DNA of 47,797 nt from a virus. Its lineage: Duplodnaviria; Heunggongvirae; Uroviricota; Caudoviricetes. The position numbers and the translations under genes are program-made. Under the pieces are notes generated by a model. The model was not told the DNA's origin, made no database searches, and saw only the letters and a list, made by a program, of their open reading frames with translations. Where the stretch lies: IMG/VR virus record IMGVR_UViG_2571042438_000008. One strand, given 5' to 3'. Below, piece by piece: positions 4,311 through 32,449 of the stretch (within the stretch, counting starts at the first letter, position 1; each line of letters starts with the position of its first letter).

Positions 4311-4725
4311 AAGATAATCATGTGACCAATTATTGTAATAATTTTAATGGTATGTTTCTACTGGCTATCCAGCGTGTCTGATATCCAGTAACAAATCGTC
4401 AACACGGGTGCAATCAAATGGTGAGTGTTAAGACTGACCACTTATTACCAGGTATGAGTGGCCAGCATTAAATCAGAACAGCCCTTTAACTGAACTGGCC
4501 GCGCTGTTAAGGGATGATGTCACCTTATCTTTGAAGCCGGACAGCATATTGCTGAACGATGAGTTTACCGCAGGTTTCTGGCTGGGAATCATTGACTGGA
4601 GTTAGGCCAGTAGTATGATGCTCGCAAAACGAGATCCAATTTAGATCCTTTTACTGGTGGATTATCGTTCGATCAGTGAGAGACTTCGTGCATGACCGAA
4701 AGTGTTGTGGTAGAGTTCTCTTAAA

Positions 4726-4740: not shown

Positions 4741-4780
4741 TATGATTGTGGGTGTCTGGTTGGAAAGTGACCAGATATGG

Positions 4781-4861
4781 AAACAAAAAGCCCGCAGATA
4801 AATCTGCGGGCTTCTTGCGACATCCACGGAAAACCAACAACTAACCATGGGCGCCTCGACA
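4781..4861 (-). ncRNA. Candidate CopA-like antisense RNA of the repA leader (~80 nt)
   Basis: Minus-strand perfect -10 TATAAT (plus coords 4868-4873) with weak -35; minus-strand intrinsic terminator (10-bp GC-rich stem 4789-4812 followed by a U-run); lies inside a 16-bp inverted repeat of the leader (4823-4838 / 4875-4890). Confidence 0.45.
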
Positions 4862-4905
4862 ACTCCCATTATACGTTGGTTTTCCGTGGACGCAAGAGCG
4901 AACAT

Positions 4906-5754
4906 ATGGATAGACCAATGCCGTCTCTACGTTCAGCTTACGTTTGTAATTTGTCGCCGGAGTTCCAGCCTCCAAAGCACCATACGCACAAGCTGCCGCT
5001 GGTGTTATCTGATGCTTTACAGCGCATTAATGGGCGTGATCTTACGTGTGAGGTTGCGTTCTACGTTAATCAACCGTCAGAGCGGAAGCGCCGGATAAAC
5101 GAGCATCGTCGTCGGGCGATTAATGCTGTGATCGCTGCGATTTTGCACCATGTAAACATCATTTCTAAGCGGGTTCTGGCCAGTGCTGAGGCGTTGGCTG
5201 ATTTTTGCGGCCTGTCTACCGTATCCGAAGCTGGGAACAAGTCTATAACGCGCTGTACAAGGGCGTTGTCGCAACTGAAAGCGTTAGGTTTTATTGATTA
5301 TGAACGTCGCTGGGATCGGGTGAATAAACAGTATTGGCCAGCGAAAATAGAGATTCGTGATCAACTGCTGGAAACCGTTGGTATTACTGAACAAGCATGG
5401 AGACGTGCGGTTAGCCAGAAACTTAATTACTTCAATGCGAAGAATAGCGAACGGCTTAAAAAAGCGATAACGGAGGCTGATTATAAGCGTATTGTTATTC
5501 AGGAGCAGATGGAGAATGTATGGCATCAGAGGAAGACGGCCAGAGAGATAAAGGCAAAACAGAAAGCAGCGGAGAGAGCTGCGCGTCTTGTTCGGGAAAA
5601 GGGAGAGGCCGAACTTCGTCATCAAATCACTAGAGAGGTTAGCCAGGAATTTGCTGATGGCATGTATCCTGGAGCTGACCTTGCATATTTACGATCCCTC
5701 GTTGAGCAGCGTTATAACAGGTTAAGAAAGACCTGGAAATCACTCCAACATTAA
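4906..5754 (+). CDS. repA: Replication initiator RepA, IncFII (RepFIIA) family
   Basis: Translation aligns with R100/R1 RepA1 as recalled (RRRAINAVIAAIL..., SITRCTRALSQLKALGFIDYE vs SITRATRALTFLSELGLITYQ); start chosen at the in-frame ATG 4906 by length; the ORF is open upstream to 4777. Confidence 0.85.
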   Translation: MDRPMPSLRSAYVCNLSPEFQPPKHHTHKLPLVLSDALQRINGRDLTCEVAFYVNQPSERKRRINEHRRRAINAVIAAILHHVNIISKRVLASAEALADFCGLSTVSEAGNKSITRCTRALSQLKALGFIDYERRWDRVNKQYWPAKIEIRDQLLETVGITEQAWRRAVSQKLNYFNAKNSERLKKAITEADYKRIVIQEQMENVWHQRKTAREIKAKQKAAERAARLVREKGEAELRHQITREVSQEFADGMYPGADLAYLRSLVEQRYNRLRKTWKSLQH

Positions 5755-5895: not shown

Positions 5896-5904
5896 TTATC
5901 CACA
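5896..5904 (+). promoter_or_regulatory. DnaA box TTATCCACA in the candidate oriR downstream of repA
   Basis: Perfect 9-mer consensus ~140 bp after the repA stop in an AT-rich tract, followed by a GC-rich hairpin cluster (6004-6200). Confidence 0.5.
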
Positions 5905-6385
5905 GTTTTGATATGTATATGCAAATGGTTTTTTATAATAGATGCACTAAACAAATAAATGCAAAATCACTTTCTTTTATTAAGACTTTCTTTATTTAAC
6001 TTACGCAGGCTTTGCCTGTGAATATGTTCGCCCTTGCAGCGAGCTAAAGCTCGCGCCGGTTCGAGTCGCTACGCTCAAATATACCTCCTCCGGCACTTGC
6101 CGGAGGCATGGAGCAGCCTGATCATCCTTTTCGAAACGGCGCGTTTCGAACTATACAAAATCAATTTATATAAGGCCGAAATAAGGCCTACGGCCGGGCT
6201 TTGCAGGAGGAAGGGGCGAGCCTTATCAATAAACGTCGAGAAATACGCACACAGTAGCCATCAGAACGCGATAAAACGTAAGAAACATCATTTCCTATTA
6301 GACATAGAAAACTTGTCTTATACGCAATGTAGTAAATTTCTATTGCCACATAGGAAAAGATTTCCTACCATCGTAGATATAATAA

Positions 6386-11399: not shown

Positions 11400-11658
11400 T
11401 CGAGGCTAATCAAATGGTGGTGAGCCGTACAGGGTTAGCCTTACCGGACACAATGACGAACCGGCGCGGATTTCTCCGCCCCTGTACGACCCACCATAAT
11501 TTGGGCGTAACAGTGCTCTACGCATAAAAAAACCGCTAACGCGGTATGCGCCATCGTGTTATTCAGGAGGCTAATCCCGGCCGTAGATTTTGCTACGGCT
11601 CGGAAAGTGTCCACCAATGGCGCATTTATGTCAATACGGCGGGATTTTAACAGAGACA

Positions 11659-11673
11659 ACCACATAGCGTGGG
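11659..11673. promoter_or_regulatory. Degenerate operator-like dyad ACCAC-ATAGC-GTGGG upstream of the antirepressor operon
   Basis: 9/10 arm match to the ACCAC-N5-GTGGT dyad. Confidence 0.3.
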
Positions 11674-12116
11674 TTTATTGGTAGGCAGAAACAAAAAAAC
11701 CGCCCTATTGAGGACGGTTCTTTCGTGCTGATCGGATTCGCGGTCCTTTCAGCATTACGTTGTTGTATAAACAACCACGCAAGCACAAGCAGCAAGTTAA
11801 TTTTACCCAAAAGGTAATAATAGTCCACTATTATGCTTCAAAAAATTGTGGTTCTTGTTGTGCCTGCAAACTCACAGATTGTGGGTAGGTTACTGATTTT
11901 GTGAAAATAAACGAGTTTTTTCGTTTAATTTCTTTCCTATTACTAATCTTAAAATAATCGTAAAATACCTGTGGACCTTCCCGCCGATTCGCACCCGGGC
12001 ACCGACTTTAGGGGAGGATTCTCCGTTGCCGTACATGCAAGCACAAGCAGCCGTGCTTGCTCTCGCGTTGTTTTCGTCGGTGGGGATGCCGTGAAACGGC
12101 CTGTAAGGGCCATACA

Positions 12117-12239
12117 ATGAAAAAATACTGTATGTGTATTTTTATCGTTGTTACTGGGGCTTTGTTTACGCCACATGGGGAGGGTTGGAAGATTACTGAT
12201 AACGCTCTGAATGTGACGATAAACATTAGCAGCAAGTAG
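12117..12239 (+). CDS. Small hydrophobic peptide (40 aa; MKKYCMCIFIVVTGALF...)
   Basis: ATG 12117 in an otherwise ORF-poor, hairpin-rich region; followed 7 nt later by a strong intrinsic terminator. Confidence 0.3.
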   Translation: MKKYCMCIFIVVTGALFTPHGEGWKITDNALNVTINISSK

Positions 12240-12245
12240 CGATTA

Positions 12246-12268
12246 GGCCCCTTCGGGGGCCTTTTTTT
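12246..12268 (+). terminator. Rho-independent terminator
   Basis: GGCCCC-TTCG-GGGGCC stem-loop followed by T7. Confidence 0.8.
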
Positions 12269-23199: not shown

Positions 23200-23275
23200 G
23201 GCCCCTTAGCTCAGTGGTTAGAGCAGGCGACTCATAATCGCACGGTCATCGGTTCAAATCCGGTAGGGGCCACCA
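23200..23275 (+). tRNA. tRNA with CAU anticodon (Met or Ile2/lysidine type), 76 nt including CCA
   Basis: Cloverleaf elements readable: acceptor GGCCCCT/AGGGGCC, D-arm AGCTCAGTGGTTAGAGC, anticodon loop CTCATAA, T-arm GGTTCAAATCC, 3' CCA; close to E. coli tRNA-Ile2 as recalled. Confidence 0.85.
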
Positions 23276-26155: not shown

Positions 26156-26779
26156 ATGACAAAACATCTTAATGTGGTTTCTTTACCACTTTCTGTGTTG
26201 ATTGGTTATGAAAAGAACGCTCGCACACACTCCGTGGAGCAGGTAGATCAGATTGTTGCCAGCATACAGGAGTACGGATGGACTAATCCGATCCTGATAG
26301 ACGAGAACAACGTTGTAATTGCTGGTCATGGTCGAATTGCTGCGGCCACTCAGTTGGGGATGGATGAGGTTCCCTGCATTGTTCTGGAAGGGCTAACGGA
26401 GAATCAGAAGAAGGCATATCGTCTGGCCGACAACCGTATTCCGCTGAATGCTGGTTGGGATGAAGAGTTGTTAAGCGCGGAGCTTGCAGATCTTGCGGCC
26501 GATGATTTTGCTCTGGACTCAATTGGTTTTACTCAGCGCGAACTGGATAACTTATTGAGTGCGGCGGTCTACGATGACACAGAGGGTATGGATATCCCAT
26601 TTGAGAAGGATGAGGCCAAATCAGGCGTAAAAGTTCAGTACCTGTCATTTGGAGGTCATAAAATCCCGGCAACGGATGAGGAAGCGGATCGTTTTGACTG
26701 CGCGGTGTCTCGTTATGTTGATGATAATGGCAGCTATATCGGATTTGTATCCGCATTGCTGGCTGGGGAGGTGTGCTGA
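26156..26779 (+). CDS. ParB N-terminal (ParB/Srx nuclease-like) domain protein, paralog 1
   Basis: LIDENNVVIAGHGRIAAATQLGMDEVPCIVL; paralogous to 29446..30036. Confidence 0.7.
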   Translation: MTKHLNVVSLPLSVLIGYEKNARTHSVEQVDQIVASIQEYGWTNPILIDENNVVIAGHGRIAAATQLGMDEVPCIVLEGLTENQKKAYRLADNRIPLNAGWDEELLSAELADLAADDFALDSIGFTQRELDNLLSAAVYDDTEGMDIPFEKDEAKSGVKVQYLSFGGHKIPATDEEADRFDCAVSRYVDDNGSYIGFVSALLAGEVC

Positions 26780-28152
26780 TGCTTCACCTCAATTACGACA
26801 TAACGCACCTACGCGGCGCGGAATATAACCCGCGTTTTATCGGTGAGGATGATCTTGCGAGGCTGGCGGAAAGCGTCAGGGAGCTGGGGCTTGTGAAGCC
26901 ATTGATAGTGCGCGGCGATTTGCTGGTGGCGGGACACCAAAGGACGAAGGCGCTACGTAAGTTGGGAATAACGCGTGCTGCGGTGTATGTGTTGCCCTGT
27001 GAAACGACGGTATACGACGAAGTACGGTTTAACCAACTGCATAACGGAACGGATTTTGATAGCGGAGATGAGCGTTGCAGGGTGTCCGGTCTGGAAGATA
27101 AGCATGGTTTTGTTCAGGTATCGGCAAGCCAGATCTCAGGCAATATGCGCGCGAAAATGGCATATGTTCGAAAGAACATAGCGGAACTGGTTATCAAGTA
27201 TGGTCCGTGGGGTGGTTGTGTTGCTACTCAGTCTGGCGAGGTTATTCACTGTGCTCAGTATGCATTAGCAGCGAAGATGACGCGCACACCGCTAACGGTG
27301 TTTGTGATCCCTGATGTTGAGAAGGAAAAATACCAAAGTTATCTGAATAAAACTTATGGTGTATTTGAGTATTCTCATCTGGAGAAAACAACATACATCC
27401 AGACGTATGCGCAGCTTATGCGGTTGCGTAATGGTGGCAGCCTGAAATCAAACCTGTATGAGTCGTTGATCCTCCCGATCATTGCCAAGACGCCAAGAGG
27501 AATTGATTTTGGTTCGGGGCAGGGAGACTACGCGCGAATGCTCAGGGCAAAGGGATATAACCTGCATGATCTCGAGCTTTTCCGCCGTAAGGGCGCTGGA
27601 AACACTCTGGATAGGACCGCAACAAACCGGATGATTGATACGCTGGTGGACGACTTAAAAACGCGAGGGCGTTACGACTACGTGATTTGCGATAGCGTTT
27701 TGAACTCGGTCGATAGTGTCGAGGCTGAATGGTCCGTTCTGACGGTTCTGAAAGGCTTGTGTAAAGCTGGTGGGTCAATATTCTTTTCTGGCCGTAGCCG
27801 TGGAGAGCTGGAAACCGTCCTGAAACAAACACAAGCGGCGAGTTCCAAAAGCCGGCTTTATTTTATTGATCATAACGGTTTTACCGCGTTGTACCGGAAG
27901 GGGCACTGGTTTTACCAGAAGTTTCACTCTGATGATGAAGTGAAGCAGTTGTGTCGTGTACATGGTTTCAGGATTAAGCGGTCAATATTCAACTGTAAGA
28001 GCTGGTATTTGCACGTCATTAACGATGATTCCCTTAGTTGGGCGAGTCTGGAGAAAGCTGTTCGTTTTGAGTTTGAGTTGCCGTTGCCTGGTGGTTCAAC
28101 AATCGGACGATCTGATGATGTGCTGGCGGCTTTCCGGCCGTTGATTAAGTAG
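26773..28152 (+). CDS. ParB N-terminal domain fused to a putative SAM-dependent methyltransferase domain
   Basis: N-terminal LVKPLIVRGDLLVAGHQRTKALRKLG (ParB-like); glycine-rich IDFGSGQGDYARML (motif I-like); no DPPY/NPPY seen. Confidence 0.55.
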   Translation: MLMLHLNYDITHLRGAEYNPRFIGEDDLARLAESVRELGLVKPLIVRGDLLVAGHQRTKALRKLGITRAAVYVLPCETTVYDEVRFNQLHNGTDFDSGDERCRVSGLEDKHGFVQVSASQISGNMRAKMAYVRKNIAELVIKYGPWGGCVATQSGEVIHCAQYALAAKMTRTPLTVFVIPDVEKEKYQSYLNKTYGVFEYSHLEKTTYIQTYAQLMRLRNGGSLKSNLYESLILPIIAKTPRGIDFGSGQGDYARMLRAKGYNLHDLELFRRKGAGNTLDRTATNRMIDTLVDDLKTRGRYDYVICDSVLNSVDSVEAEWSVLTVLKGLCKAGGSIFFSGRSRGELETVLKQTQAASSKSRLYFIDHNGFTALYRKGHWFYQKFHSDDEVKQLCRVHGFRIKRSIFNCKSWYLHVINDDSLSWASLEKAVRFEFELPLPGGSTIGRSDDVLAAFRPLIK

Positions 28153-28168: not shown

Positions 28169-28888
28169 GTGGCTGACAGAATTGAGATAAAGATGGATTT
28201 TTCTTCTCAGGATATTCAACGACAACTCCAGCGCCTTGAAGAACGCGAATTGCCGTTCGCAATGGCGCTTGCGGCAACCAGAACGGCAAAGGCTTCTCAG
28301 GCTGCGATTAAGAATGAAATTAATCGGGTATTTGACAGGCCCACGCCGTGGATTCAGAACTCTACTTACGTTTTGGCCGCAAAGAAGAGTGATCCTACAG
28401 CCATTGTGTATGCTCGTGAATGGGGAGGAACGCCAGCCCCTGTAACGTTGACTCCGCAAATCGAAGGTGGACAACGACAGTACAAACGCTCAGAAGGGGC
28501 GCTAAGGGCTGGTGGATATTTGCCTAACGGCTGGCAGCTTGCTCCTGGTCCCGGTGCAAAGCTGGACAAATACGGGAATATTTCGCGGGGGCAATTACAG
28601 CAGGTCTTATCTGGCCTAAGAGTTCAGCGAGATGCGCATCAAAATCGCCGTCAGGGCAAGCCTACGGAGTTTTTTGTTGTTCGACCTGGTACAAGTAACC
28701 CGCTTCAACCAGGCGTCTGGCAGCGCGTTGGGCGGCGTCCTACGTTGATCCTTACGTTTATCCAGCAACCTAACTATTCGCAGCGTCTTGATTGGCATGG
28801 CGTGGCGCTGCGTGCTGGTGAGGATGCGTTTGCTGATGAAGTCACAAAGGCTATTGATGACATTCTTTCTAAGACTTTCTCTCGTTAA
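28169..28888 (+). CDS. Hypothetical protein
   Basis: 239-aa ORF after the ParB-methyltransferase fusion. Confidence 0.45.
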   Translation: MADRIEIKMDFSSQDIQRQLQRLEERELPFAMALAATRTAKASQAAIKNEINRVFDRPTPWIQNSTYVLAAKKSDPTAIVYAREWGGTPAPVTLTPQIEGGQRQYKRSEGALRAGGYLPNGWQLAPGPGAKLDKYGNISRGQLQQVLSGLRVQRDAHQNRRQGKPTEFFVVRPGTSNPLQPGVWQRVGRRPTLILTFIQQPNYSQRLDWHGVALRAGEDAFADEVTKAIDDILSKTFSR

Positions 28889-29445
28889 TCATCGTGTGGT
28901 TGATGGTGTTGTTATGCAGAGTGTATTCACTGTGTTCTGTAGCGTCGCTCGCTGGCTGTCTGTGGGTGGGCACGAGCATCGTTTCATCGTCCGGCAGAAT
29001 TGGGTCCTTCTGGCCAAAAGCGTTGGATGCGGGTCATTCGAACCCCGATGTTCGGCTAGCTAAACGTGAAAAAAGTTAGGTTAAAAGTTGCGGTAAAAGA
29101 AATTTACCCATCTCATTGAAAAATATTGGGAAAACGTGATTTTTTGCTGTGCTTGTGATGGTGAAAAGAAAGTAGAGAATTTTCTTTTAGATCATCAAGA
29201 TACGCGCAGATCTTTAACCAATGCAAGGCTGTTTTGATAAAAATCTTTATAAATCATGCAAATACATCCAATCTTTTAACCAAAACACCATCGGAAGATC
29301 CTTTTTACTTATAAAAACTTAATAAAACCAGATAATTATGCTGGTTTGTGTGATTTTTTATGAGTAAAAAGATCGTCATTTTTCTCTTTTAGTATCAATA
29401 AGTTAAACATTTTTCTTTAACCTGTTGTGTTATGGCGGTTAAAAA

Positions 29446-30036
29446 ATGGCTCTAAAAATCGAATATTTACCAGTCGGTAAGCTGCTCAGATATGCCAAAA
29501 ATTCACGGACTCATTCAGATGAGCAAGTTGAACAGTTGGTGAACAGTATCCGTGAGTTCGGTTTCACTAATCCTGTGCTGATCGATGAAAAGAATGAACT
29601 GATTGCGGGGCATGGGCGGCTTGCAGCAGCCGAAATTCTGGAAATGGATAAAGTTCCGGCGATTCGGTTGAGTAACCTTTCTGAAAAACAGAAGAAGGCG
29701 TACAGGATTGCAGATAACAAGCTGGCCTTAAATGCTGGCTGGGATATGCAGCTTCTGGCCGAAGAAGTCAAAGAGTTAATGGATGATGATTTTGATATTG
29801 ATCTGCTTGGGTTTAATGATGCAGAGCTTGACGAAATGTTAAGCGATGAACAGCCGCAGGAAGAAGACGATAATTCTTCCCCTGTTGTTCAAATTAAGTA
29901 CCTGGCTATTGATAAAGAACGTATTCCCGCGACGGATATGGAAATTGCATTGTTGCTGGATGTTTATCGTCAGTACCACGACGCGCATGAAACGCATGAG
30001 GGATTTGTTCAGTATCTTGCTAATGGTTGCAAGTAA
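29446..30036 (+). CDS. ParB N-terminal domain protein, paralog 2, immediately upstream of terminase
   Basis: LIDEKNELIAGHGRLAAAEILEMDKVPAIRL; clearly alignable with paralog 1 over the N-terminal ~110 aa by eye. Confidence 0.7.
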   Translation: MALKIEYLPVGKLLRYAKNSRTHSDEQVEQLVNSIREFGFTNPVLIDEKNELIAGHGRLAAAEILEMDKVPAIRLSNLSEKQKKAYRIADNKLALNAGWDMQLLAEEVKELMDDDFDIDLLGFNDAELDEMLSDEQPQEEDDNSSPVVQIKYLAIDKERIPATDMEIALLLDVYRQYHDAHETHEGFVQYLANGCK

Positions 30037-30587
30037 TGGCCATCGTCAGTAAGTCAGAGTTTGCCCGCCGGAAAGGTATTTCTCCGGCAATGGTTACGAA
30101 GCTCTGTCGTTCCGGTCGCATTCCAGTGCTGAAAAGCGGCAAGCTGGATTTTGATAAAGCCAGTGCGGCTTATGAAGCGAGCCGACAGGTTGGTCGTGAG
30201 GTATCTGCTGAAAATGGAAAAAGAGGGCATGGGATATCTTCGGAACAACCAGAGTTACCCGCTGATGATGCCGGATTAGCTGGTGGTACTTCCGGTGTTG
30301 CGGTGCAATTCAACAAGGCTAAGACCGCAGAAAAAATTTATCAGGCAAAGCTGAAACGCCTTGAATTTGAAGAAAAGGAAGGCTCTCTCATCGCTAAAGA
30401 TGCGGTCAGGGATGATGCATTTCTGGCAGCTAATGAATTGCGTAGCCGCTTATTTAGTATTGCTCCAAGAGCAGCTCCCCGTTGTGAAGGCAAAACAGCC
30501 AGGGAGATCGAACGCATTATTGAAGACGAGATTAATTTTGCGCTTCAGGCGCTCCAGGAATCCCGATTTATTAAGCAGGAAGAATAA
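30027..30587 (+). CDS. Terminase small subunit (Nu1-like, putative)
   Basis: N-terminal HTH-like SKSEFARRKGISPAMVTKLCRSGRIP; directly upstream of the large terminase; alternative start ATG 30036. Confidence 0.6.
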   Translation: MQVMAIVSKSEFARRKGISPAMVTKLCRSGRIPVLKSGKLDFDKASAAYEASRQVGREVSAENGKRGHGISSEQPELPADDAGLAGGTSGVAVQFNKAKTAEKIYQAKLKRLEFEEKEGSLIAKDAVRDDAFLAANELRSRLFSIAPRAAPRCEGKTAREIERIIEDEINFALQALQESRFIKQEE

Positions 30588-30592
30588 ACCTC

Positions 30593-32449
30593 ATGGGCGA
30601 AACAGTATGGAGCACCGCTTTTTTCCGTGCGCTTCGCCCTAAATCACGGCTAACTGTTTCCGAATGGGCTGATAAGTATCGTCATGTAGCGCCGGGAACG
30701 TCTCCAGAGCCAGGGCCGTGGCGTACAAGCCGAGTGCCATATTTGCGTGAACCAATGGATGTTATTGGTGACGCTGATACAGAAACAGTAGTGATGCAAT
30801 GTAGCTCGCAAATTGGTAAATCCGAATTACAGCTAAATGTTATGGGTTACTTTGCAGATCAGGAGCCATCTCCTCAGTTGATGATTTATCCAACGGTAGA
30901 GGCGGCTGAGGCTTTTTCAAAGGAGCGTATTGATCCGACGTTCAAATATTCCCCTGGTTTGAAACACAAGCTGCATGAAGGGAAAGAGGGGCGCGGTGCA
31001 GCCAAAAAGTCCAGCACGACTATACGTATGAAGCATTACGCTGGTGGATATATAGCACTTGTTGGTGCTAATTCCCCAGCAGGTCTTGCATCCAGGCCAA
31101 TTCGAATACTGTTAGCTGATGAGATTGATCGTTACGGTGTGACGCAGGAGGGCGACCCACTAAAACTAGGTATTCAGCGTACTACCAACTTTCATAATCG
31201 TAAGAAAGTTTTTGTTTCTACTCCTGTTTTGGAGGAAACGAGCAAAATCCACAAGTGGTTTAAGCTCTCCGATCAGCGTTACTACCATGTTCCTTGCCCA
31301 TGTTGTGGCACCATGCAGGTGATGAAATGGTCGCAAGTCAGATGGGATAAGAGCGATTCAGGTGAGGCGTTACCGGAAACGGCCAGATATGAGTGCTGTG
31401 AGTGCGGCGGGATTATGCGCGGATCTGGTAAACCAGACGTTGATTGGTTGGCGAAGGGGGTATGGATAGCTGAACATACTGGAGTTAAAGGTATTGTTGG
31501 TTTTCATATTAACAGTCTTTACTCCCCGTGGGTTGCATTGTCAGAGCTGGTTGAAGAATTTACGGAAGCAACCAGAAACCGCGATAAAAATGGATTAATG
31601 GAGTTTATTAACCTTAAGCTGGGTGAGCCATGGAAAGAGGATGCTAAAGACGATATCGATCCTGAATACTTGTTGCAACGCAGAATAAGGTTTGAAGAGT
31701 TTTTACCAGATGATGTTTTATTGTTAAGTGCTGGTGTTGACGTACAGGACACGTATTTAGTTTGTGAATTGGTCGGTTGGGGAAAAGGTAAGGAGTCATG
31801 GGGGATAGAATATAAAATATTCCCAGGTGATCCCGCACAAGATGTTGTCTGGAAACAACTTGATGAATACTTACTCCGTAGCTGGTCATTCCGTGACGGT
31901 CGAAAATTACAGATTTCTTCCGTTTGTATTGACTCTGGTGGGCATTTTACGACAGAGGTATATCGCTTTACTAAGCCGAGAGAATCAAGGCGAATATACT
32001 CTATCAGGGGGCGTGGTGGGGTAGGTTTACCGTTTATAGGAAAGCCAAGTAATAATAACCGTGTGGGTGCTATGTTGTTTAATTTGGGGGTTGATGATGG
32101 TAAAGGGACCATCATGGCAAGAATTAAACTACATGATCCTGGTCCTGGTTATATGCATTTCCCATTAGATTCTGACAGAGGATATGATACCGAATACTTT
32201 AAAGGATTATTATCAGAGAAGAAAATATTTGAATATAAAAATGGGCAGACAAAAGAAAAGTGGGTAAAAGTCTACGAGCGTAACGAGCCTCTTGATTGCC
32301 GTAACTATGCAACTGCCGCGATGGAAATTCTGAACCCTAATTTTAACTGGCTTGCCGAACAGGAAATGCGAGGTAATGTGTATGTGCAGAACTCGTCAGG
32401 TATACGTAGAAGACGCCGTAGAGTTATAAGTAAAGGCGTAACCATATAG
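30593..32449 (+). CDS. Terminase large subunit (lambda gpA family)
   Basis: 618 aa; gpA-like motifs in the translation (VSEWADKYRHV..., LADEIDRY); position before gpW-like and portal. Confidence 0.85.
   Translation: MGETVWSTAFFRALRPKSRLTVSEWADKYRHVAPGTSPEPGPWRTSRVPYLREPMDVIGDADTETVVMQCSSQIGKSELQLNVMGYFADQEPSPQLMIYPTVEAAEAFSKERIDPTFKYSPGLKHKLHEGKEGRGAAKKSSTTIRMKHYAGGYIALVGANSPAGLASRPIRILLADEIDRYGVTQEGDPLKLGIQRTTNFHNRKKVFVSTPVLEETSKIHKWFKLSDQRYYHVPCPCCGTMQVMKWSQVRWDKSDSGEALPETARYECCECGGIMRGSGKPDVDWLAKGVWIAEHTGVKGIVGFHINSLYSPWVALSELVEEFTEATRNRDKNGLMEFINLKLGEPWKEDAKDDIDPEYLLQRRIRFEEFLPDDVLLLSAGVDVQDTYLVCELVGWGKGKESWGIEYKIFPGDPAQDVVWKQLDEYLLRSWSFRDGRKLQISSVCIDSGGHFTTEVYRFTKPRESRRIYSIRGRGGVGLPFIGKPSNNNRVGAMLFNLGVDDGKGTIMARIKLHDPGPGYMHFPLDSDRGYDTEYFKGLLSEKKIFEYKNGQTKEKWVKVYERNEPLDCRNYATAAMEILNPNFNWLAEQEMRGNVYVQNSSGIRRRRRRVISKGVTI

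Follow-up and report, generated by a model that had tools for sequence, protein, structure and literature searches.

The 47,797-nucleotide (nt) stretch of DNA analysed here over its full length (hereafter the window; IMG/VR record IMGVR_UViG_2571042438_000008, Caudoviricetes) contains, at positions 28889-29445, a gap just upstream of the genes for DNA packaging. Our results indicate that this gap very probably holds a cohesive-end site (cos) of the lambda type, belonging to a phage-plasmid. We hold this reading with high confidence because three lines of evidence converge on it, namely the ends of the deposited records of relatives, the lambda geometry of the cosQ and cosN elements and the presence of a terminase of the GpA family. 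An earlier note on this DNA, based on its letters only, had proposed either a cos/pac site or a second replication origin; the cos part of that proposal is now strongly supported, while pac and origin find no support, given the defined ends and the lack of a DnaA box. The core of cos is at 29002-29061 and not in the AT-rich repeats, since the cutting site (29029-29047) belongs to the left part of the gap, which is normal in GC content and lies about 170-240 nt upstream of the two repeats stressed in the earlier note.

Record ends and lambda-like geometry of the cut site

The most direct evidence for a fixed cutting site comes from the points at which the records of related phages break (a caret marks a nick or a break). 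In the plaque-forming Yersinia phages vB_YpM_39, 41 and 44 (~49 kb, ~96% identical over the tract), the records of vB_YpM_39 and 41 end with ...GGATGCG and start with GGTCATTCGAAC followed by CCCG, which corresponds to window 29031^29032, and the record of vB_YpM_44 ends with ...GCGGGTCATTCGAAC and starts with CCCGATG..., corresponding to 29043^29044. The two breakpoints of these three records are exactly 12 nt apart. A protein search with the large terminase (TerL) also retrieved the Vibrio phages X29, phi 2, vB_VpaM_XM1 (XM1), PVP-XSN, R19R and R20L, for which the family 'Weiviridae' has been proposed (PMC11432961). Their TerL is 63-65% identical, their records share the order ParB-like gene, terS (small terminase) and terL, and terL starts ~1375 nt into the record. 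Record ends were read for five of them (all except phi 2): PVP-XSN, R20L and XM1 start at GCG^GGTGCTCGCGAC, and the breaks of X29 and R19R fall 11 and 10 nt, respectively, further right than this start point. In the XM1 record, GGTGCTCGCGAC is present at the beginning and again at the 3' end, followed there by a single additional A. A short terminal duplication followed by an A is the trace left by fill-in and A-tailing of a 5' overhang in an uncurated assembly. As the XM1 paper does not discuss the termini, the ends of its record are uncurated. The 12-nt duplication with its additional A points to a filled-in 5' overhang. Finally, the record of Paenibacillus phage Lily breaks at GCG^GGT and displays GGTACT at the cosQ offset. 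Altogether, the five Vibrio records and that of Lily break at, or within 2 nt of, the positions homologous to the Yersinia breakpoints.

Termini determined in two more distant phages have a similar layout. Serratia phage BZS1 has 12-nt 5' ends according to PhageTerm, confirmed with PCR and sequencing (PMC7556043); GGGTCCT is found at -31, and CTAGCT follows the cut on its right side. Acinetobacter phage HFM1 has 11-nt 5' ends according to PhageTerm (annotation of OR246918.1), in the context GCG^GGACCGAGGAC^CCC.

The second line of evidence is the resemblance to lambda itself. When both sequences are aligned on the nick, GGGTCCTT occupies positions -30 to -23 in the lambda right end (NC_001416) as well as in the window (29002-29009). 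The heptamer GGGTCCT occurs only once in the window, both strands considered, and its position at -30 to -24 from 29031^29032 reproduces the offset of lambda. This heptamer is known in lambda as cosQ, where it signals termination, and the Feiss laboratory describes cosQ and the CG dinucleotides at the nicks as invariant in lambda-like cos sites, while end positions 7-12 vary (PMC4669245). The statement of the earlier note that no lambda cosN-like sequence could be seen has thus to be reversed, as the lambda cosQ is present, spaced from the nick exactly as in lambda, and both sites have CG^GG at the left nick. To the right of the cut, CTAGCT keeps its offset in XM1, X29, Lily (as CTAGTT), BZS1 (1 nt off) and all the E. 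coli-type lineages, and may correspond to the I2 segment of lambda on sequence grounds.

The packaging enzymes fit this picture. Pfam and PHROG matches confirm the position that the earlier note had assigned to the tract, upstream of the ParB-like, terS and terL genes: a GpA-family TerL and a TerS are encoded just downstream, on the strand of the packaging direction (Table 1). TerL and lambda gpA share 28% identity over 599 amino acids (aa; E 2e-62), and a portal of the lambda family is encoded after it.

Likeness to lambda has clear limits. Both systems combine a GpA-family TerL and a lambda-family portal with cosQ GGGTCCT(T), 23 nt between heptamer and nick, the CG^GG left nick, a 12-nt end (presumably 5' here), repeats on the terS side of the cut and a TerS with a predicted N-terminal helix-turn-helix. 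On the other hand, the cohesive end matches GGGCGGCGACCT of lambda at only 3 of 12 positions, which leaves the window outside the narrow group with lambda-like ends (lambda, 434, phi80, 21, N15 and gifsy-1; PMC4669245); the right flank is C^CCCG instead of T^CGCG; TerL is only 28% identical and the TerS sequence is not detectably similar to gpNu1. Moreover, the repeat motif is unrelated to the R sites, with at least seven repeats over 370 nt versus ~120 in lambda, a ParB-like gene is inserted between cos and terS, the match to integration host factor (IHF) is not conserved and the element is a plasmid prophage. Phage N15, with its 'simple' cosB, illustrates how phages with cosQ and cosN in common can differ in the architecture of cosB (PMC4669245); N15 keeps the lambda end at 10 of 12 positions with a reduced cosB, whereas a different end and an expanded array are found here.

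Closer counterparts exist outside the lambda group. BZS1 and HFM1 share a GpA-family TerL (37.5% and 46% identical, respectively) and their 5' cohesive ends of 12 and 11 nt; in addition, HFM1 displays the GCG^GG...AC^CCC context, and in BZS1 GGGTCCT precedes the cut and CTAGCT follows it. They differ by their overhang sequences and by a terS gene that directly follows cos, with neither a ParB-like gene nor a GGTTAA array, and the upstream element of HFM1 is GAGTCTC, shifted by 3 nt. The six Vibrio phages are nearer in organisation, with the order cos, ParB-like gene, terS and terL, the cos skeleton GGGTCCT-N23-^GGT......GAC^CCCG-N8-CTAGCT and an array of GTTAAC type between cosN and the ParB-like gene. 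In contrast, their spacer is ~130 nt instead of ~400 nt, their repeats (GTTAACA(C/G)) are evenly spaced, their records are linear virion genomes and their cos is undescribed in the corresponding paper.

Several observations weigh against this interpretation. The termini derive from the linearisation points of relatives' assemblies deposited by others; the three Yersinia records are flagged as circular, and our literature search found no paper on vB_YpM_39, 41 and 44. The right-hand boundary varies, being at 12 nt in vB_YpM_44 and XM1, 11 nt in X29 and HFM1 and 10 nt in R19R, and the published nick of BZS1 is shifted by 1 nt in the alignment. The overhang length is therefore put at 12 nt, uncertain by 1-2 nt. 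The two-fold symmetry around the overhang is also modest, and the low identity of the overhang with that of lambda mentioned above belongs to the same side of the balance. For these reasons, a 12-nt 5' overhang at exactly 29031^29032 and 29043^29044 is, judging from sequence comparison, probable, at a lower level of confidence than the presence of cos as such. For this element, we infer the 5' polarity and exact length of the overhang, as well as the role of cosQ.

If the site works as in lambda, TerS and TerL would bind concatemeric DNA during lytic growth at the GGTTAAARR sites located to the right of the cut, which would act as cosB, with S1 and S1' (29079-29100; Table 1) as the most likely anchors of the terminase. 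TerL would introduce staggered nicks, at 29031^29032 in the top strand and at 29043^29044 in the bottom strand. Packaging would proceed rightward, so that the ParB-like, terS and terL genes would enter first, and at the next cos the heptamer at 29002-29008, as cosQ, together with cosN would direct the terminating cut. The resulting virion DNA, of ~48-49 kb, would carry the 12-nt 5' ends GGTCATTCGAAC, whose re-annealing would restore the circular plasmid.

Table 1. Candidate cos features in the gap and adjoining packaging genes (window coordinates; a caret marks a predicted nick)
Feature	Position	Strand	Remarks
cosQ-like heptamer GGGTCCT	29002-29008	+	Within conserved block TTGGGTCCTTCTGG (29000-29013); putative packaging-termination signal
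cosN core GCG^GGTCATTCGAAC^CCCG	29029-29047		Predicted nicks 29031^29032 (top) and 29043^29044 (bottom)
Putative 12-nt 5' cohesive end GGTCATTCGAAC	29032-29043	+	Delimited by the breakpoints of the Yersinia records
CTAGCT	29056-29061	+	13-18 nt right of nick; same offset across relatives; possible counterpart of lambda I2 segment
Proximal cosB candidate AAAAGTTAGGTTAAAAGTTGCGGTAAAAGA	29071-29100	+	Holds S1 and S1'; nearly invariant in lineages A to C
S1 GGTTAAAAG	29079-29087	+
S1' GGTAAAAGA	29092-29100	+
S1'' GGTGAAAAGA	29160-29169	+	Degenerate repeat
S2 GGTTAAAGA	29211-29219	-	First element of the earlier note
S3 GGTTAAAAG	29273-29281	-	Second element of the earlier note; inverted copy of S1
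Large imperfect palindrome, 83 nt	29294-29376		Arms GATCCTTTTTAC... and ...GTAAAAAGATC, each GATC-ended
IHF consensus match WATCAANNNNTTR (TATCAATAAGTTA)	29393-29405	+	Weak evidence
S4 GGTTAAAGA	29414-29422	-	Inverted pair with S5
S5 GGTTAAAAA	29437-29445	+	Abuts ATG of the ParB-like gene
Gene of ParB_N-domain protein (196 aa)	29446-30036	+	Between cos and terS; Pfam ParB_N E 3.8e-8; PHROG 620 E 4.6e-75
Small terminase TerS (183 aa)	30036-30587	+	PHROG 57 E 1.4e-41
Large terminase TerL, lambda gpA family (618 aa)	30593-32449	+	Pfam GpA_ATPase E 7e-76, GpA_nuclease E 1e-84

Conservation of the cos skeleton

An exact search with the 18-mer at 29029-29046 retrieved 27 viral contigs, mostly from diverged relatives in which the flanking genes are 72-80% identical at the DNA level and the intergenic DNA only ~50-68%. 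Since such a search presupposes the site, the survey was repeated with loci fetched by TerL alone, yielding 23 loci with enough upstream DNA, five distant relatives being counted apart. Twenty-two of the 23 keep at least 44 of the 49 positions of 29000-29048, and the 18-mer is exact in 21 of these 22. In the five distant relatives (TerL 50-77% identical), the skeleton GGGTCCT-N23-GCG^GGT......(A/G)C^CCCG...CTAG is kept around a variable overhang centre, with the cosQ variants GGTTCCT, or GGTACT one nt further right; more generally, the heptamer or its GGTACT variant is retained in relatives whose TerL is 42-77% identical. Where the ParB-like gene is missing from this place, cos is found ~710-750 nt before terL. 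Conservation stops abruptly on the other side: left of 29000, the remaining 110 nt of the gap are not alignable between sister lineages and, therefore, cos marks a mosaic junction.

The pattern GGGTCCT-N20-GCGGGT-N8-CCCCG was also scanned over 185,579 species genomes (GTDB, one per bacterial species) and matched 65 loci (L078-L142). In 32 of them, the pattern is followed on its own strand by a GpA-type TerL (24-56% identical) whose start is 600-810 nt away, and the hosts of the pattern include Pseudomonas, Paenibacillus, Brevibacillus, Neobacillus, Domibacillus, Sporomusa, Sutterella, Roseomonas and Devosia. Many of the remaining matches have no downstream room in the fetched locus or come from GC-rich genomes, where chance is a likely explanation. 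The lambda cosQ heptamer and its spacing thus appear, on sequence comparison, to be conserved far beyond lambda-like phages. A module GGGTCCT-N23-nick...CCCG-N8-CTAG(C/T)T is common to phages with a GpA terminase, from Proteobacteria to Firmicutes, and its sharing over this range suggests that recognition of cosQ and I2 is a task of TerL itself throughout these phages. Our literature search found no paper on such a wide conservation of cosQ, and GGGTCCT was co-mentioned with terminase only in an unrelated Brucella study.

A side observation concerns Paenibacillus sp. USDA918EY, of which three contigs end 5 nt from the pattern (L086, 6-51; L090, 7891-7936; L103, 1162-1207) and a fourth (L128) has the pattern with TerL downstream. 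It looks as if the assembly had broken at a cos site, or else at a prophage end that is repeated.

The AT-rich repeat array and its possible readers

The earlier note had described the whole gap as an AT-rich tract of 550 bp. This holds for 29062-29445, with 29% GC, and fails for 28889-29061, with 53-56% GC (window mean, 44.6%). The AT-rich part harbours seven sites of GGTTAAARR type, in both orientations and with irregular spacing. The heptamer GGTTAAA is present five times in 405 nt (29044-29448), where 0.15 occurrences are expected under a first-order Markov model (none of 5000 simulations reaches five), and all five GGTTAAARR sites of the 47.8-kb window are confined to this segment. The repeated TCTTT(T)AACCAA element noticed earlier is real, with TCTTTAACCAAT at 29211-29222 and TCTTTTAACCAAA at 29272-29284, and both copies are part of this larger family.

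An alignment with one representative per lineage revealed that six repeat positions are conserved. Lineages A to C have the motif GGT(T)AAAAG there, and in lineages L013 and L055 each of the six carries GGTTAACAA. For instance, S1 and S1' change jointly to GGTTAACAA and AGTTAACAA in L013 and L055; the position homologous to S1'' reads GGTAAAAAGA in group B and GGTTAACAAA in L013 and L055; S3 becomes TTGTTAACC or TTGTTAACT in L055 and L013, and S4 is TTGTTAACC in both. Joint changes of this kind, over many sites, are the mark of a single protein that reads all of them and co-evolves with them. The Vibrio phages carry five to six GTTAACA(C/G) repeats in their 130-nt spacer. Not every repeat is required: a natural 90-nt deletion in vB_YpM_44 (L005) has removed window 29170-29259, including S2 and two GATC sites, and as this phage forms plaques, S2 and that part of the tract are dispensable for plaque formation.

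Which protein would read these sites is a matter of balance. By analogy with lambda and from their position next to cosN, we lean towards the repeats being TerS-binding cosB sites, and packaging specificity is known to reside in the pairing between TerS and cosB (PMC4669245). The N-terminus of TerS matches a helix-turn-helix of Cox/excisionase type (PHROG 575, E 7.5e-5), and its AF2 model, calculated from the single sequence, predicts an N-terminal beta-helix-helix-wing-helix with pLDDT values of 85-89. A Foldseek search with this model gave no significant match, its N-terminal 50 residues aligning with the winged helices of Xis, BldC and RacA at E > 0.5; a PDB sequence search returned nothing meaningful, Pfam gave only sub-threshold helix-turn-helix matches and BLASTP found no similarity to gpNu1. 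Several facts speak against this assignment. TerS lacks similarity to gpNu1, and its winged-helix call combines a single-sequence model with non-significant fold matches; one repeat (S2) is lost in a plaque-forming phage; the repeats extend over 370 nt with the ParB-like gene between them and terS, whereas the lambda cosB is compact; and relatives without a ParB-like gene at this position are also without the repeat array. The joint absence of array and ParB-like gene makes the ParB-like protein an equally lineage-correlated candidate binder.

The AT-rich array could accordingly be mainly a regulatory or loading region for the ParB-like protein or its paralogue encoded at 26156-26779, with cosQ and cosN unchanged. 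In that case, it might serve to autoregulate the operon, to organise the chromosome end into a nucleoprotein complex or to assist packaging. Array and ParB-like gene do co-occur in the E. coli-type lineages, L013, L055, X29 and XM1, and both are missing where cos directly precedes terS, as in L061, L064, BZS1 and Lily. In the same vein, the inverted pair S4/S5 abuts the start codon of the ParB-like gene, the conserved 83-nt palindrome is more reminiscent of an operator than of the lambda cosB, and S2 is dispensable. We nevertheless consider this alternative, although a serious rival, rather unlikely, as the ParB-like protein has only the ParB N-terminal domain (Pfam match over residues 15-86) and no detected helix-turn-helix domain, while the predicted N-terminal helix-turn-helix of TerS is of the Xis/MerR type, a class that binds AT-rich repeat arrays. 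Besides, the distance of S1 and S1' from the nick (36-57 nt) is that at which terminases of the lambda type bind. The recognition-helix region of TerS also differs between lineages that differ in repeat motif, and so does the ParB-like protein, so that this co-variation cannot discriminate between the two. A still more speculative version, which we find doubtful, is that the expanded array of at least six co-evolving sites was acquired together with the ParB-like gene and that the ParB-like protein, not TerS, reads the GGTTAARR/GTTAAC repeats. If this were true, cos recognition, end protection or packaging control would involve, in this lineage specifically, the ParB-like protein as a third component.

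Other functions of the tract have far less in their favour. Since a ParB_N protein is encoded beside the repeats and the element lives as a plasmid, the repeats might be a parS-like partition centromere ensuring plasmid maintenance. This is very unlikely, as the plasmid encodes a ParA of its own ~16 kb away, followed by a small partner gene, the ParB-like protein is short and devoid of a detected DNA-binding domain, and the same arrangement is found in Vibrio phages deposited as linear virion genomes; moreover, three ParB_N paralogues surround cos, one of them fused to a methyltransferase, which is typical of ParB-like genes of phage packaging regions. A second, lytic origin of iteron type, suggested by the 29% GC stretch, the repeated 9-mers and a marginal excess of GATC, is slightly less credible still. 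AT-richness is the only trait of an iteron origin that fits: the tract has no DnaA box (TTWTNCACA), the only perfect one (TTATCCACA, 5896-5904) being next to repA (4777-5754), and RepA and this box are ~23 kb away; no initiator, helicase or primase gene adjoins the tract; the repeats are in mixed orientation with irregular spacing; and the same array adjoins cosN in the Vibrio phages, whose whole spacer is ~130 nt. Least probable of all, to the point of being negligible, is a pac site for headful packaging, for which the location upstream of terS and terL is the sole argument: TerL is of the GpA family, whose characterised members cut at cos, independent records break discretely at the same two nucleotides and are not circularly permuted, and the lambda cosQ element is present.

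Concerning the origin of the plasmid, three GATC sites are clustered within 42 nt (4633-4674) just upstream of repA, and the DnaA box TTATCCACA is just downstream of it, beside short AT-rich direct repeats (5959-5999). The surroundings of repA (4633-4674 and 5896-5904) are likely to be the plasmid origin region.

The remaining signals of the tract are less telling. The several GATC sites mentioned in the earlier note are indeed there (four, at 29190, 29209, 29297 and 29371), and three of them adjoin repeat or palindrome ends; as 1.0 is expected from local composition (Poisson P = 0.02), their excess is only marginal, and GATC as a Dam-regulated feature was not retained. GATC is under-represented across the whole window. 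The palindrome, folded as single-stranded DNA, reaches -16.5 kcal/mol (z = -6.0 versus shuffles), and lineages A to C retain its arm ends. Possible roles are those of an operator, a cruciform or, in the late transcript, an RNA hairpin. Matches to the IHF consensus number four in the window, which equals chance expectation, and that of the tract is kept in lineages C and C2 and not in B. An RNA gene was rejected, as neither ARAGORN nor Rfam at gathering thresholds finds anything in the tract; Rfam hits with E up to 1 are sub-threshold matches of miRNA hairpins, confined to the palindrome. In the same way, GGGTCATTCGAACCCC looks tRNA-like by eye and ARAGORN finds no tRNA there. A scan of 28700-29600 for sigma-70 promoters and intrinsic terminators found none.

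The phage-plasmid around the cos site

Matches to the tract, 95-99.6% identical, occur in at least 72 complete E. coli genomes and are plasmid-borne in 71 of them, mostly on plasmids of 47-52 kb. Plasmids of Salmonella and Klebsiella match as well, and every one is typed as non-mobilisable. The near-identical plasmid p142_C carries, in its RefSeq annotation, RepA, ParA, a RelE/ParE toxin-antitoxin pair, lysis genes, lambda-type head genes and a contractile tail. From this gene content and the plasmid location of the matches, the window is a circular E. coli phage-plasmid of ~48 kb. In addition to the Yersinia phages, its plaque-forming relatives include two partial E. coli phage records.

The absence of a credible open reading frame (ORF) from the gap, as already claimed, is borne out, since no ORF wholly inside 28889-29445 exceeds 61 aa; a 91-aa TTG ORF (28788-29063) only runs in from upstream, starting within the upstream gene and ending within the gap. 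RefSeq p142_C and the related phage records have no annotation under the gap, and one plasmid (NZ_CP172156.1) has a 'hypothetical protein' annotated under the match. The last gene before cos (28169-28888) is assigned to PHROG 1924, 'minor tail protein' (E 2.5e-97), yet it is far from the tail genes and has no match in Pfam or NCBIfam; the label is probably unreliable. Genes with a ParB N-terminal domain bracket cos (26156-26779, 26773-28152 and 29446-30036): two short paralogues, both PHROG 620, flank it on either side, and the third is fused to a methyltransferase domain. Ends at 29031/29044 place this fusion gene near the right end of the virion DNA, where it would be packaged last if the process is lambda-like.

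Elsewhere in the window, Rfam matches at gathering level correspond to C4 antisense RNA (11413-11501, minus strand), IsrK (11526-11599, minus strand) and ryfA (11971-12267, plus strand). They adjoin genes of Rha and ORF6N type, which suggests that 11413-12267 is an antisense-RNA immunity region in the style of P1/P7. For a tRNA with a CAU anticodon (23200-23275), ARAGORN proposes tRNA-Met and PGAP, in the near-identical plasmid, tRNA-Ile; this gene may encode a tRNA-Ile2 of the lysidine type.

To conclude, the site is of a known kind, a cos of GpA-type terminases with 12-nt 5' ends, and as a feature built like that of lambda it is ordinary. It goes slightly beyond routine by the expanded co-evolving array with a ParB-like gene between cos and terS and, also slightly, by the wide conservation of the lambda cosQ spacing at low TerL identity. 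No description of cos was found in the literature or in annotations for this common phage-plasmid family, and a literature search for a description of the family itself returned only P1-like and SSU5-like elements. Our results fix the physical ends of the virion chromosome for common ~48-kb phage-plasmids of E. coli, Salmonella and Klebsiella, and they can guide annotators in orienting these genomes; nearly all of the 72 or more complete E. coli genomes with the tract lack annotation at this place. Besides, the segment at ~29000-29100 is a candidate minimal packaging signal, which could be exploited for transducible cosmids and for the search of satellites that hijack the phage. Finally, the persistence of the lambda cosQ heptamer and its spacing at 28% TerL identity and in distant phyla informs how GpA terminases may recognise their termination signal.

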